Below are positions 1 to 4,198 of a DNA stretch of 64,000 bases, piece after piece. This stretch comes from Candidatus Poribacteria bacterium (GTDB taxonomy: Bacteria > Poribacteria > WGA-4E > WGA-3G), in NCBI GenBank assembly GCA_965198235.1, contig OZ240248.1:736001-800000 (forward strand), written 5' to 3'. The notes beneath the pieces were generated by a model, which saw only the letters and a list, made by a program, of their open reading frames with translations, was not told the origin of the DNA and did no database searches. Each line of letters begins with the position of its first letter. Position 1 is the stretch's first letter. The translations under genes and the position numbers were made by a program.

Positions 1-936
1 CGGCTCCATAAAGATAATCGGTGACTCAAAAAACGCTGCATCCGTAATGTGGACTGCGTCAACCATTTGGGTTTCGACACCCGTTTCTGCATTCAGCGAC
101 TTAACTAAATAGGGCAGACCTGCCCCGAATCGGAGATGTCCGATGCCGCTGCCTCATATATCGAGGTTCGGATGCAATGGGTCGTCGAGACGGACGAGGT
201 TGAGTCTCCCAATAATCTCTGTAGCCCGACCTTGAATGATGGCACCTGGGCTTCCCTTCGGAAGTTGTGGGACACCATTACCGAGAACCATGTTCTCTGT
301 TACGTCCGACAACGAGGCATTGATATTTGCAGCACCTGCTCCCTCTACGAGCGAGTTCAGCCTGCCACGGCTTTGTGTCCGCCCTTGTCCAAGACCGGAT
401 CCAGAACCGAAAGCCCCGCGCCCGGTACCGCTACCTAAACCGTCACCGATACCTGTACCTATGCCATCCGTAATTGCTCCGCCACTGGGCAAGCCTGCGG
501 TGGGTAATCCATCTGAGGCTGTCGGTAGTTTTGCAGCCGTTGACAGCGGTTGCGCAGTATGCTGGATCACGGGAGACGCACTCGGAACTTTGATTTGCTG
601 TCCTCTTGGGGCAGCTGATGCACTCGCCATTAGTGACACCGCAGGTGCTGCAGTTGAGGACGATCTCAATGCGCGTGCGACTGTTGTCCGACGCTGCGTC
701 GTCTCAGTTTGCGGAACGACTCTCAAATCTGGAACAGGGGTTGTTACAACGGCTGGTTTCTGAATAACATCCCTTTTTGCTGCTTGGGGTGATGTGACAA
801 TGAAGAAACTCAAATCAATGGTATCTTGTGCCTTCTGTGGTTGAGATGAGATCGCGATGTACCCTACAACGACTGCGAGGCAGACGTGTATGACGAGCGA
901 TACCATCCATACGAGAGGTATTCGGCGCGATTTCAT
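1..936 (-). CDS. Membrane-anchored protein with Pro/Gly-rich linker and DUF4159-like C-terminal domain; in-frame TGA at 154-156; runs off the window edge
   Basis: SD AGGAGGTG precedes ATG at 936. N-terminal TM helix (SLVIHVCLAVVVG) and GxG-rich linker. The frame stays open for 51 codons after the TGA (GSGIGHLRFGAGLPYLVKSLNAETGVETQMVDAVHITDAAFFESPIIFMEP), which resembles DUF4159. Confidence 0.65.
111..153 (-). promoter_or_regulatory. Candidate bacterial SECIS element
   Basis: mRNA 3' of the UGA folds into AUCGGA-CAUC-UCCGAU and GGGCA-GGUC-UGCCC. GCAGGUCUGC matches the apical part of the E. coli fdhF SECIS. Confidence 0.45.
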
Positions 937-1741
937 GGGACGCACCTCCTATGTGTTTAAGAGTTAGGGGACTAACATCTGTTACATCTGATTTTTCTGC
1001 CATTTATATTCACTACATTAACGTGGATTCAGCATAAAAGAGGTCAGGAAGAGAACCCTTCTGATTATTAAAGACACAATTTCAGGGTGAAAAAGGTGCA
1101 TAATTCAAAAAAAAATAAAAAACCTAAATTTTAATCCAAAAACCGGTGTCTTAGTTGCGCATATTTATAACGGAAAGAAACTTTTTCTGAAGATAAGTCA
1201 ATCTGATAAAACCAACAATTTACCCGAGAGTATTCTCCAAATGCTTATGTCAAACTCACATTATGCTAACAATTTCTGCATTATTTGTCAAGGGAAAATT
1301 ATCTTCTCCTTTACTTTCCGTAAACACAGTCTGTTATGGAAAAGCCGTTGCATTGTTCTGTATCTCTCCAAGGGAAAGACTCCTCCGCGTTTACAAGGCT
1401 TATGGATATTGGAGCAATTTTCATGCCAAAATCAATTCAAACGCCAAATCACCGTAAAAGAAGATTTTTCGTTAATTCTGCCTGATAAATTAGTTTTTTG
1501 CAGTCCAATTTCTGGACAGTGCTGTTCAAAAACCAAATCTCAAATGATGCCAGAATAGTTATCAGTATTCAGTTAGAGGAATTTATGGGTAATCCCAGTT
1601 TTCCGTAGGCACGGTAGGTACGGTTTCCTAACCGCACCGAGCATCGCTAAGATATTACCTAATTATTTTTTTAATCTCCATTAAATCCTACCAGCCAAGG
1701 AAGACATGTGAGAAACCACTGCCACAGATATGTGAGAAGGA

Positions 1742-4198
1742 TTATATGCCAAACCAATATCGGCATTTAATCAAGAAAATATTCTTTCCAGGATCCGTAA
1801 AACTGCTTCGTAGGCGATGCACGGGTCGAAACTCAAGGTCTTCTGCCCCAACCTCTCCTAATTCAAGTGCACGCGATTGGGACCAAACCAAAAACAGCGT
1901 ACTTCCCGGACGGAATTCCCAGCGAAAGACGGTGTTGCCTCTCAGCGAACGCATGTGGAAATCGGGATTCCTCTTCAACGGATACGGTTTAAACCGATAC
2001 GACTTCGGTTCAATCAACTCCTTGAAATTAGAATAGTCGCCGATGGTAATGAAGGGTTGCACGTAAAATTGAAGGCTCAGCGTCGGTGTGAAACTGATGT
2101 TCGCGCGTGTGGTGAAGTCGAGTGTTTGGCTCGTTAGTTCTCCATAGACGTAGTGTCTGCTGACTTGTCCATTGATGTTTTCTTCAATTAACTCAACCCA
2201 CTGTGCATCGTAAATTCGGTAGCGATACATCGGTCCAATACTTAACTCAATGTTCGACACCGGACGAATGTTCAGACGGAGACTTACCTCTTTTTCAGAA
2301 TTTTTGTTATCATCGTCCCATGCGAAGATTGGATTCAGTTCGAGCTGAACCATTTTACGACTATCGGTAGAAAGTCGGCTAAAAATCCACCAACCCGCAG
2401 GATTTTTAATCAGTGTCCCACCGCGTCGGACATCCTCGTCCCTAAACGACTCCAAATTCCGTCCAACCCACAGGTCATATTCCCAGTAGTTTTTCAGTTT
2501 GCCATCCGTCCATATCTCGGAGTAGCGACCAATGCTAACACCATCATAATTCCACTCTCGCCAACCGAAGAGCCCAAAAGTAACCTCTCGGAAAATACTA
2601 AACGGCTGCTCCTTTTTGAGGATAAAGTCATAGAACCATCTCATCATATCGCCGCGCTGCGTATACCCTATGTCATTTATGTCTAAGTCTGGGGAGCGAA
2701 CATTAAAATCAGTATAAAGCCGCCACCATCCACCCTGTTTGTGAAATACAATATGTGCAAGGTAACCCGATTTACGTGCCTCAAGTTCTCCGGCTTGGCT
2801 TGCCGCTACCATTCCGCTTATCTTGTACCGCTCCTTCGCAAATCTCAAGTCCCAGTCAAGCCCACCTACATACGCAGCGTTGGAAGCCTGCCGATTTACC
2901 GCTGTTGTTATCAGTCCGACGCGAGAATTCCCTTCCAAGATATCTTGTGTCACTCGACCGACAAAGTAGTTTGTCAGCGGTTCAAGCAAATAATCGCGGC
3001 TTTTGCCTTGTTCCTTAACCTGTGCATACTCCCGTGCCGTGACAGCCTCCATGATACCGAAGGAGGTATTACTGTTGGTTCTTCCAACGATTTTGGCGGC
3101 ACCGAGAATCGTTGTGGCTTCCGGACGACTCAGTTCGGTAGCACCCTCTGGAATCTTAAAACGCCGCGGTTGCCGTCCGATTCGCCGTGAGTAAAAGAAT
3201 TGATTTTCCCCCTCTCCGAAGTTAAAAATGGATGACCCTTTGACAAAAAAGGGTCTCCGCTCCTCAAAAAACTCTTCATAGGCAGAGAGATTCAAGGTAG
3301 CAGGGTCTGCCTCCACCTGTCCAAAGTCGGGGTTGATTGTGGCGTTGAGGGTTGTCCCGGTGGTAATTCCATATTGGACATCGCCGCCAACATTCCCCCA
3401 CAAATCAGCCTTGCTGTTCAGAGTTGTCCTGCCCATCGCATAGGGTATCAATTCCAAATGACGAGAAGGTTTGATATTCTCAATACCCGTCAGGTCACCG
3501 AAATGCGATATCCAGCCCGGTTCACTCTTCTTAATCAAACGCCAGTGGGAACGCTCTTTTCTACGACTAATCTCGCGCTCTACCTGTAATCCCCACGTGT
3601 ATTTATCTTTTGGAGAGAAGCGGAACATGTAAAACGGGATTTTACATTCCACCGCCCACCCATTTTCGTGAATCCGAGTTTTCGCGTCCCAGACTCCATC
3701 CCACGCGTTGTTCCAGCCATTCCACCCGCCGCCTCCAGTAATGCCGTCTATCACAGAACCAGAAGGATAGACAGTAAATGAGAAACCGCGCTGCCGATTG
3801 TAGTGCGGGTCAAGGATAATCTGGATTTTGTCGGATTCAGTGTAATCGTCACGCCTGACGAGACGCGAAACAATCTTGTCGGGTTCACTGTCATAGCACA
3901 TAACAGCGAAATAGACCGCCTCATCGTCGTAGGCGACTTGGAATGTAGTGCGTTCAGATACGGGTTCGCCTTCATCGGGGTCGCGTTGACGGAAGCCTTC
4001 GTGGAGGGGTGCAATCTTCCAAATTTCGTCGTCCAAAACGCCGTCCAATTGCGGTGGCGCGCCTTTAATTCGGACAGCCGTCGCAACTCTGTGAGCGGAC
4101 TCTGTTTCTGTCTCGGCCTTTATTACGTTTGGGAGTTGTAAAGCAAAAAACGCCATCAACAACGCCAAAACGCGCCAAAACTCTGATTCAGTTTTCAA
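1742..4198 (-). CDS. Secreted/outer-membrane protein, CBM9-like sugar-binding domain plus DUF5916
   Basis: Signal peptide; PQLDGVLDDEIW, YDDEAVYF, WDGVWD and NPDFGQVEADP motifs; aromatic C-terminus. Confidence 0.8.
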   Translation of the reverse strand: MKTESEFWRVLALLMAFFALQLPNVIKAETETESAHRVATAVRIKGAPPQLDGVLDDEIWKIAPLHEGFRQRDPDEGEPVSERTTFQVAYDDEAVYFAVMCYDSEPDKIVSRLVRRDDYTESDKIQIILDPHYNRQRGFSFTVYPSGSVIDGITGGGGWNGWNNAWDGVWDAKTRIHENGWAVECKIPFYMFRFSPKDKYTWGLQVEREISRRKERSHWRLIKKSEPGWISHFGDLTGIENIKPSRHLELIPYAMGRTTLNSKADLWGNVGGDVQYGITTGTTLNATINPDFGQVEADPATLNLSAYEEFFEERRPFFVKGSSIFNFGEGENQFFYSRRIGRQPRRFKIPEGATELSRPEATTILGAAKIVGRTNSNTSFGIMEAVTAREYAQVKEQGKSRDYLLEPLTNYFVGRVTQDILEGNSRVGLITTAVNRQASNAAYVGGLDWDLRFAKERYKISGMVAASQAGELEARKSGYLAHIVFHKQGGWWRLYTDFNVRSPDLDINDIGYTQRGDMMRWFYDFILKKEQPFSIFREVTFGLFGWREWNYDGVSIGRYSEIWTDGKLKNYWEYDLWVGRNLESFRDEDVRRGGTLIKNPAGWWIFSRLSTDSRKMVQLELNPIFAWDDDNKNSEKEVSLRLNIRPVSNIELSIGPMYRYRIYDAQWVELIEENINGQVSRHYVYGELTSQTLDFTTRANISFTPTLSLQFYVQPFITIGDYSNFKELIEPKSYRFKPYPLKRNPDFHMRSLRGNTVFRWEFRPGSTLFLVWSQSRALELGEVGAEDLEFRPVHRLRSSFTDPGKNIFLIKCRYWFGI

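Follow-up and report, generated by a model that had tools for sequence, protein, structure and literature searches.

A previously unlisted candidate selenoprotein family: a Sec/Cys subfamily of DUF4159 in Candidatus Poribacteria

The studied stretch is 64,000 nucleotides long and comes from a Candidatus Poribacteria bacterium (contig OZ240248.1, positions 736,001 to 800,000). It is hereafter called the window and corresponds to G000:C1:736001-800000, where G000 is its source genome. At its left edge, wholly on the minus strand, lies a gene with a single in-frame TGA, which we propose to be a selenocysteine (Sec) codon. The part inside the window (1..945) covers codons 1-315 of 527 of the open reading frame (ORF), whose read-through protein matches DUF4159. 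The likely start codon is GTG (943..945), the first start of the open frame, with a stop one codon upstream. The TGA (154..156) is codon 264, and 263 codons are open on either side of it. Its context is ...LVRLDDPLHPNLDI*GSGIGHLRFGAGLPYL... (...HPNLDI*GSGIGH...), giving the motif D-I-U-G-S-G-I-G-H-L-R-F-G-A-G, in which non-TGA homologues have Cys at the Sec column. In the genome sequence, the frame runs on beyond window base 1 to a TAA at G000:C1:735362-735364. The original prediction, made on the window alone, described an ORF that stops at a TGA (154-156) in mid-domain and a frame that stays open to the window edge. Both statements agree with the complete frame, in which the TGA occupies bases 156-154 of the minus strand and is followed by 263 codons up to the TAA.

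The encoded protein is built of an anchor, a linker and a domain. Hydrophobic 19-residue windows above 1.6 on the Kyte-Doolittle scale are confined to start positions 7-18, which defines a single hydrophobic segment at about residues 9-33 (847..921, minus strand), preceded by R2, K5, R7 and R8. This segment is probably a signal-anchor, with the remainder of the protein lying outside the cytoplasm. It is followed by a linker of about 200 residues (~ residues 34-235; 241..846, minus strand), recognized by its low-complexity composition rich in Ala, Gly, Ser, Thr and Pro and by its poor alignment between homologues. Residues 341-490 match profile positions 62-201 of DUF4159 (PF13709; E = 3.7e-19, 69.5 bits against a gathering cut-off of 25.9). 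The earlier label "DUF4159-like" was therefore correct, although the match becomes visible only when the sequence beyond the window is added. When the window part alone was searched in Pfam, only a chance-level match to DUF4684 was obtained. No NCBIfam family (release 20.0) was found for the read-through protein at E <= 0.01. The only Cys is residue 22, within the anchor; Sec is the sole Cys/Sec residue outside the membrane and has no CxxU-type partner.

Two hairpins follow the UGA within the coding sequence. Hairpin 1, AUCGGA-CAUC-UCCGAU (129..144, minus strand), occupies positions +10 to +25 after the UGA and has a conserved stem and a variable loop. Hairpin 2, GGGGCA-GGUC-UGCCCU (111..126, minus strand, loop 120-117), is the proposed apex of a bacterial Sec insertion sequence (bSECIS), based on its pairing, conservation, coincidence with a minimum of synonymous diversity, and a 10-mer shared with Escherichia coli fdhF. 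Both had been anticipated, one as a hairpin with its loop about 34 nt after the UGA and the other as a second perfect hairpin preceding it; the loop of hairpin 2 indeed starts at the 34th nucleotide, and hairpin 1 was located at 144-129. The minimum-energy fold includes a possible outer helix (94..151, minus strand; arms 151-145 and 100-94) which encloses both hairpins and is less well supported than either of them.

Distribution of the TGA was followed in several datasets. A six-frame search of 40 relatives revealed a single-TGA orthologue in 21 of the 24 same-genus genomes and in 4 genomes of another family, the latter with 57-60% identity. The TGA is at the identical codon in all 28 TGA copies extracted. 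A scan in which each GTDB species was represented by a single genome yielded 74 loci, 72 from Poribacteria and 2 assigned to "uncultured bacterium". The motif was matched by 77 copies in 71 of these loci, with 66 TGA, 9 TGT and 2 TGC codons at the site; the pattern remained unmatched in L076, L087 and L089. Throughout the phylum, the subfamily is present in 78 of 176 genomes, restricted to families f1 and f3 and to 8 of 31 genera. There are 102 matches (rows counted by hand), 85 with one TGA at the same codon and 17 without it, the latter comprising 2 fragments short of the site, 13 copies of sigma-fused length and 2 stand-alone ones.

Homologues without the TGA carry Cys. Stop-free paralogues at L033 and L034 have TGT at the Sec column. 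In a collection of 5.8 billion proteins, 39 matches were found and 17 aligned, and all 14 subfamily members among these have Cys at this column. The family is rare: among 1.84 billion representative proteins, only 153 match at E <= 0.001 and only three span the Sec region (P0003, P0008 and P0040), including P0040 with Cys at 46% identity. Trp appears only in distant canonical DUF4159 paralogues (34-38% identity), as "DWW" preceding a gap, and this gap corresponds to the ~ 10 extra residues of the subfamily, Sec included. The expectation that orthologues should carry TGA or Cys and not Trp is thus well supported. Downstream of the TGA, the frame is conserved as protein down to 57% identity over 263 codons, and no conserved start codon follows the TGA (the gene's own "QMVDAV" versus "QLVEAV" in family f3). 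The C-terminal fragments P0041 and P0044 in the representative library start at query residues 45-48, just past the site. A check of raw reads had also been suggested; contigs of 4 public runs, RNA libraries included, show no other letter at the TGA codon. One RNA-library contig spans the codon with 0 differences, which indicates presence in RNA libraries and is not proof of transcription.

Hairpin 2 agrees with the published bSECIS model, as given in the Fig. 2 legend of PMC13188914: a loop of 3-9 nt, an upper stem of 4-16 bp, G in the first two loop positions, a distance of 16-37 nt from the UGA, and minimum free energy <= -7.5 kcal/mol. Its loop is GGUC, the stem has 6 bp, the UGA-to-loop spacing is 33 nt, and the energy of the hairpin alone is -8.6 kcal/mol. 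The G.U variant in family f3 reaches -5.9 kcal/mol alone and -17 to -23 kcal/mol for the 75-nt element. The loop of hairpin 1 does not begin with G, and this hairpin is therefore not itself a SelB-type apex. In 28 aligned sequences (26 distinct), hairpin 2 is paired in 100% of cells, and its sole change is one-sided, from G-C to G.U; the corresponding values are 98.7% for hairpin 1 and 90.1% for the outer helix. Two pairs of the outer helix change on both sides (C-G to U-A), at synonymous sites, but the helix is broken in several sequences, hence these changes carry little weight. In the species-level scan, all 66 TGA copies retain GGGGCAGGUCUG(C/U)CCU, with loop and stem constant except for the exchange of one G-C pair for G.U. 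In contrast, 8 of the 11 Cys copies differ synonymously in the stem or loop of hairpin 2 (GGUU in five, GGAC, GCG and CUA in one each). Because the SECIS element lies in the coding sequence, synonymous sites were tested, with diversity expressed as the fraction having different codons among sequence pairs that share the amino acid. It is 0.079 at codons +5 to +14, the gene-wide minimum, compared to ~ 0.26-0.57 farther from the site. Taken by itself, folding energy does not decide the matter; conservation does. Searching Rfam with the 4.5-kb locus (E <= 0.01) yielded 0 matches, which is uninformative, as Rfam may not include a bacterial SECIS model.

The genome of the window carries the complete Sec machinery, in accordance with the suggestion to look for it. 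The selA gene (E = 2.3e-155) has no internal stop, selB, also without an in-frame stop, adjoins tRNA-SeC (anticodon tca), and selD (E = 1.9e-107) contains a TGA of its own, located at the classical ...KCAG-U-ASK... site. This selD is itself a selenoprotein gene (L006; G000:C1:3115227-3116150, minus strand), and its hairpin, GCUC-CGGGU-GAGC, is nearer to the UGA than hairpin 2 is in the DUF4159-like gene. The tRNA-SeC is the only tRNA with anticodon tca in the genome, and TGA terminates 7 of 30 orthologous frames. SelA was found in 163 of the 176 Poribacteria genomes and in 74 of the 78 which carry the subfamily gene; the remaining 4 are 81-90% complete.

Conservation of the TGA, Cys partners, constraint on the SECIS and the Sec machinery uphold the proposed Sec insertion, and we regard it as very probable that UGA-264 is read as Sec and that the gene is a genuine selenoprotein. 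SelB and Sec-tRNA(Sec) would decode the codon, directed by the bSECIS inside the coding sequence, with its apex 33 nt downstream and the second small hairpin filling the spacer. Several observations weigh against this reading. Folding energy of the region is no better than that of shuffled sequences (z = -1.64; 14 of 200 shuffles as low). Hairpin 2 shows no compensatory change, and with only one one-sided change its support comes from conservation and not from covariation. Part of this conservation is protein-driven, since the hairpin encodes the invariant peptide F-G-A-G-L. Most of both hairpins is still kept in Cys copies, which weakens the contrast between TGA and Cys genes. At 33 nt, the spacing comes close to the maximum allowed by the bSECIS model, and the stem lacks the bulged U that E. 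coli SelB requires. Of 64 same-genus genomes, 14 yielded no subfamily gene, single-contig ones among them, and the gene is therefore dispensable. Finally, all organisms involved are uncultivated and represented by metagenome-assembled genomes, with data at the nucleic-acid level only.

Three other explanations of the TGA were weighed. The UGA could be read through without Sec machinery, by a near-cognate tRNA inserting Trp or Cys while the hairpins slow termination. Hairpins downstream of stop codons can stimulate read-through, TGG is one mutation away from TGA, and "DWW" is close to this position in the distant canonical paralogues. However, the canonical Trp residues precede the 10-residue insertion that holds Sec, and the nearest non-TGA homologues all have Cys, never Trp. 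In addition, the GGUC loop on a G+C stem fits the SelB-type model and recurs in three other candidate Sec genes, and the full Sec machinery is present; we consider this explanation very improbable. Slightly less credit still is given to the TGA as a true stop, leaving a pseudogene, or an anchor-plus-linker protein and a separate C-terminal fragment. Gene callers treat the TGA in this way, and P0041 and P0044 begin just after the site, but 85 copies have exactly one TGA, always at one codon, and no other disruption. The 263 downstream codons are conserved with no conserved start among them, synonymous constraint is observed just downstream, and a stop would interrupt one fold after strand 1 and before helix 1. 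As for an error of sequencing or assembly, or a genome-wide reassignment of UGA, nothing speaks for either beyond the in-frame TGA itself. Independent assemblies of 78 genomes concur, and the contigs of the 4 runs hold no variant; the absence of in-frame stops from selA and selB, the use of TGA as terminator in 7 of 30 orthologues, and tRNA-SeC as the only tca tRNA argue against a changed code. The probability left for this explanation is negligible.

To describe the fold, residues 228-527 were modelled with AlphaFold2 (AF2) from 46 aligned sequences, resulting in a predicted local distance difference test (pLDDT) of 81.8 and a predicted template modelling score of 0.84. In the model, the TGA site follows strand 1 and precedes helix 1 within the same fold. 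A Foldseek search of PDB disclosed 4i66 (Hoch_4089) as the sole significant match (E = 4.1e-9), followed by weak glutamine-amidotransferase-like matches, with true amidotransferases at E >= 0.014. No functionally characterised close neighbour was detected in this search. The matches agree with the assignment of DUF4159 by Pfam to the glutamine-amidotransferase-like clan, which was made on structural grounds (PMC4702930).

Comparison with canonical DUF4159 members reveals a remodelled site. In 25 of 36 canonical rows, a Cys is located in the strand-turn-helix motif "DDCG", and in all 10 subfamily rows its place is taken by His ("THGN"). The Gly-rich loop with Sec or Cys, ~ 10 residues inserted after the first beta-strand of the subfamily, is missing from all 36 canonical rows. 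Profile positions 1-61 of DUF4159 are unmatched, and neither the canonical "DWW" region nor the "DDCG" Cys is found in the protein. Because the N-terminal third is remodelled and His stands for the "DDCG" Cys, we consider this a divergent DUF4159 subfamily and not a canonical member. Class I glutamine amidotransferases are recognized by an elbow Cys in a triad with His and Glu; in the model, the elbow-like residues 135-145 have His instead. His-containing motifs invariant in the subfamily are HP, THGN, DH, IHV and THGN-ISDYS. The differences from canonical members suggest a relocation of the reactive residue, in which Sec may take over the role of the nucleophile and possibly form a Sec-His pair.

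Some family members are fused to other domains. Proteins P0008-P0035 (720-744 aa) have Sigma70_r2 and Sigma70_r4_2 ahead of the anchor, linker and DUF4159 domain, and 6 of 46 aligned family members carry sigma-70 domains. Fusion of the domain behind a sigma factor and a membrane segment is seen with Cys in 13 copies and with Sec in one genome. As an illustration, the copy at L083:12-2006 is comprised of Sigma70_r2 and r4_2, a hydrophobic segment, a linker and DUF4159. Because this segment separates the necessarily cytoplasmic sigma domains from the DUF4159 domain in fused paralogues, the domain is expected to face the periplasm. In family f3, three genes are arranged in tandem: a Cys gene of the sigma-fused type, a Sec gene without fusion and a canonical paralogue. 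The copy at L116:1160-3379 (+) (G069:C50) encodes an extracytoplasmic function (ECF) sigma-fused protein of 739 aa, whose codon 466 is TGA and which has the same hairpin. This makes it a candidate Sec-containing sigma-factor fusion, known from one draft genome only (G069, 88% complete), and as a single case it needs confirmation. No fused-length copy from g1, the genus of the window gene, was observed among the phylum-wide matches, and the fused form seems to be lacking there. Domain partners point to signalling and suggest that the domain can act as an external sensing module of a transmembrane signalling protein.

Other architectures were also noted in the family. P0039 is fused to M48/M56 (BlaR1-type) peptidase domains. 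Canonical anchor-linker-DUF4159 paralogues of ~ 490-500 aa are numerous, with 2 to 13 matches per genome of the order, and some canonical members are sigma-fused as well.

Relationships were assessed by masking the Sec/Cys column in 79 domain sequences and building a tree from them. Its root was placed on P0040, which has a long branch, and is uncertain. Both Cys groups, the sigma-fused clade (with the Sec copy as its basal member) and the TGC pair, are nested in Sec clades, and the minimum number of Sec/Cys state changes is 3. Nesting of the Cys groups indicates that Sec is probably ancestral in the Poribacteria subfamily and was later replaced by Cys. Recent descent from Sec ancestors explains why most of the hairpins are retained in Cys genes.

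Proposals about function are more tentative. The protein would have a short cytoplasmic N-terminus, one transmembrane anchor, a linker of ~ 200 residues and an extracytoplasmic DUF4159 domain. It is possible, though short of an even chance in our estimate, that the lone Sec serves as the reactive nucleophile of a sensing or catalytic site which lies outside the cytoplasm and has been remodelled. Sec would probably be paired with an invariant His and react with an oxidant, an electrophile or a soft metal in the periplasm. Alternatively, the protein may be neither sensor nor enzyme and instead bind or handle soft metals (Hg, Cu, Zn or Se) in the envelope, with Sec and invariant His as ligands. 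Several His residues are invariant in the subfamily and Sec stands alone without a resolving Cys, as suits such a role; on the other hand, no metal-resistance genes are located beside the gene in the loci looked at, no known metal-binding family is matched, and the Sec loop is poorly modelled. We hold this metal-binding role to be rather unlikely. A nucleophilic Sec is likewise burdened by some of the data. Function is deduced from architecture alone, the Sec loop (model residues 35-45) has pLDDT < 50 and its Sec-His neighbourhood is only putative, and synteny is confined to close relatives, so no functional link was drawn from neighbouring genes.

A broader and doubtful proposal, to which we assign a low probability, is that Poribacteria evolved a Sec-based extracytoplasmic sensing module, which in at least one lineage is on the same polypeptide as an ECF sigma factor. 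In such a module, the reactive residue would have shifted from the nucleophile elbow to the new Gly-rich loop and become Sec, and transcription would be controlled through covalent modification of this single residue, whether by an oxidant, a metal or a host-derived electrophile. If true, this would be the first Sec-containing sigma factor or transmembrane signalling protein.

In the literature searched, DUF4159/PF13709 occurs only in the 2015 Pfam paper and is not connected with selenoproteins; papers that mention both Poribacteria and selenocysteine do not deal with this family, as judged from titles and abstracts. A 2026 inventory lists 119 prokaryotic selenoprotein families or subfamilies with domain identifiers (PMC13188914). 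PF13709 is not among them by term searches and a reading of part of the table, a search which an entry present only in BSepDB, deep-Sep or the supplements would escape. Together with the missing NCBIfam match, this is in line with the statement in the original prediction that the family was not known to contain selenoproteins. Judging from the sequence data, it is a previously unlisted candidate selenoprotein family, a new Sec/Cys subfamily of DUF4159 so far present only in Candidatus Poribacteria.

This assignment has practical consequences. Standard gene calling splits or shortens the gene in 78 of 176 Poribacteria genomes, and the fragments are already in public protein collections. The Sec/Cys pair marks a critical residue and provides the first candidate active site for DUF4159, which has a solved structure and no assigned function. 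With a membrane anchor, a probable location in the periplasm and a lone Sec outside any CxxU/UxxC redox motif, the protein would be an unusual type of selenoprotein; known bacterial ones are mostly of the thioredoxin fold (PMC13188914, section 7 part 1). Through the sigma-factor fusions, it becomes possible to test whether selenium chemistry is linked to envelope signalling.

Concerning its surroundings, the gene stands alone in the window genome, flanked by a DUF5916 gene (minus strand, window 1742-4198) on one side and an inserted RRXRR element on the other. About 800 nt of A+T-rich non-coding sequence (window 946-1741) separate the DUF5916 gene from the start of the Sec gene and presumably hold the promoter of the latter. 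Among the related loci, a rhodanese gene is located downstream in 40 of 74 and DUF5916 upstream in 32 of 74. The RRXRR element, to the left of the window (L001:575-1639 = G000:C1:733575-734639), contains two adjacent minus-strand ORFs of 180 aa and 165 aa. The former matches Pfam RRXRR (E = 1.6e-32) and carries a "PLMP" motif and a RuvC-like VGVDPGS, and the latter has no Pfam match; by sequence, the pair looks like a short or split IscB/IsrB-type gene. It is probably a recent insertion, because it splits the Sec-rhodanese pair which is directly adjacent in the 40 related loci. No Rfam match was found in the ~ 720-nt gap at L001:1640-2361.

In addition, the same genome has three paralogous ORFs of ~ 520-580 codons (L113-L115; G000:C1:1798435-1800177 (+), 5037514-5039067 (+) and 1265793-1267400 (-)), each with one in-frame TGA in the motif LDDESC-U-(G/A)xGKxLRAGPL, in which Cys and Sec form a dipeptide. 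A GGUC tetraloop, carried by a G+C stem of 7 bp, is positioned 24 nt after the TGA. The Sec-bearing part has no Pfam or NCBIfam match, while the C-terminal end of L113 is a Redoxin/AhpC-TSA domain. These ORFs may represent a second unlisted selenoprotein family. Such candidate Sec genes suggest an unusually large, envelope-directed selenoproteome in the sponge symbionts of Poribacteria.

The decoding signal can be compared with that of E. coli fdhF. On NC_000913.3, UGA-140 of this gene is followed by ...GGUUGCAGGUCUGCACC..., and the apex 10-mer GCAGGUCUGC is present, in agreement with the apex given in the original prediction; its loop starts 19 nt after the UGA. Both genes have an in-frame UGA and then a hairpin with a GGUC loop inside the coding sequence, the 10-mer is identical, and decoding relies on selA, selB, selC and selD, all four of which are present in the Poribacteria genome. 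In contrast, the loop starts 34 nt after the UGA in the Poribacteria gene, an extra perfect hairpin occupies the spacer, and the stem has no bulged U. Describing the SECIS as fdhF-like is thus justified for the shared 10-mer and does not extend to the spacing, which is at the far end of the range, or to the bulge. The proteins are unrelated; Sec in the Poribacteria protein is not a molybdenum ligand as in formate dehydrogenase H.

A further parallel is provided by ECF sigma factors with a membrane segment and an extracytoplasmic C-terminal domain. Paralogues of the studied gene resemble them in having sigma domains, a segment, a linker and DUF4159, whereas the window gene has no sigma part and only 8 residues before the anchor. 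With regard to DUF4159 itself, the structural-genomics protein 4i66 (Hoch_4089) from Haliangium ochraceum is the best structural match, the Pfam score is above the cut-off, and canonical paralogues encoded in the same genomes are likewise built from anchor, linker and domain. The subfamily differs from them in the ~ 10-residue Gly-rich Sec/Cys loop that replaces the "DWW" region, in His at the "DDCG" Cys, and in a match limited to profile positions 62-201. By fold, the nearest entry in the available text of the inventory is a CTP-synthase-related glutamine-amidotransferase selenoprotein with a GxUxG motif (PMC13188914), thus a selenoprotein on the same broad glutamine-amidotransferase-like fold class. 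Judging from its motif, GxUxG would put Sec at the classical nucleophile position, while in the DUF4159 subfamily this position is occupied by His and Sec is in the D-I-U-G-S-G loop.

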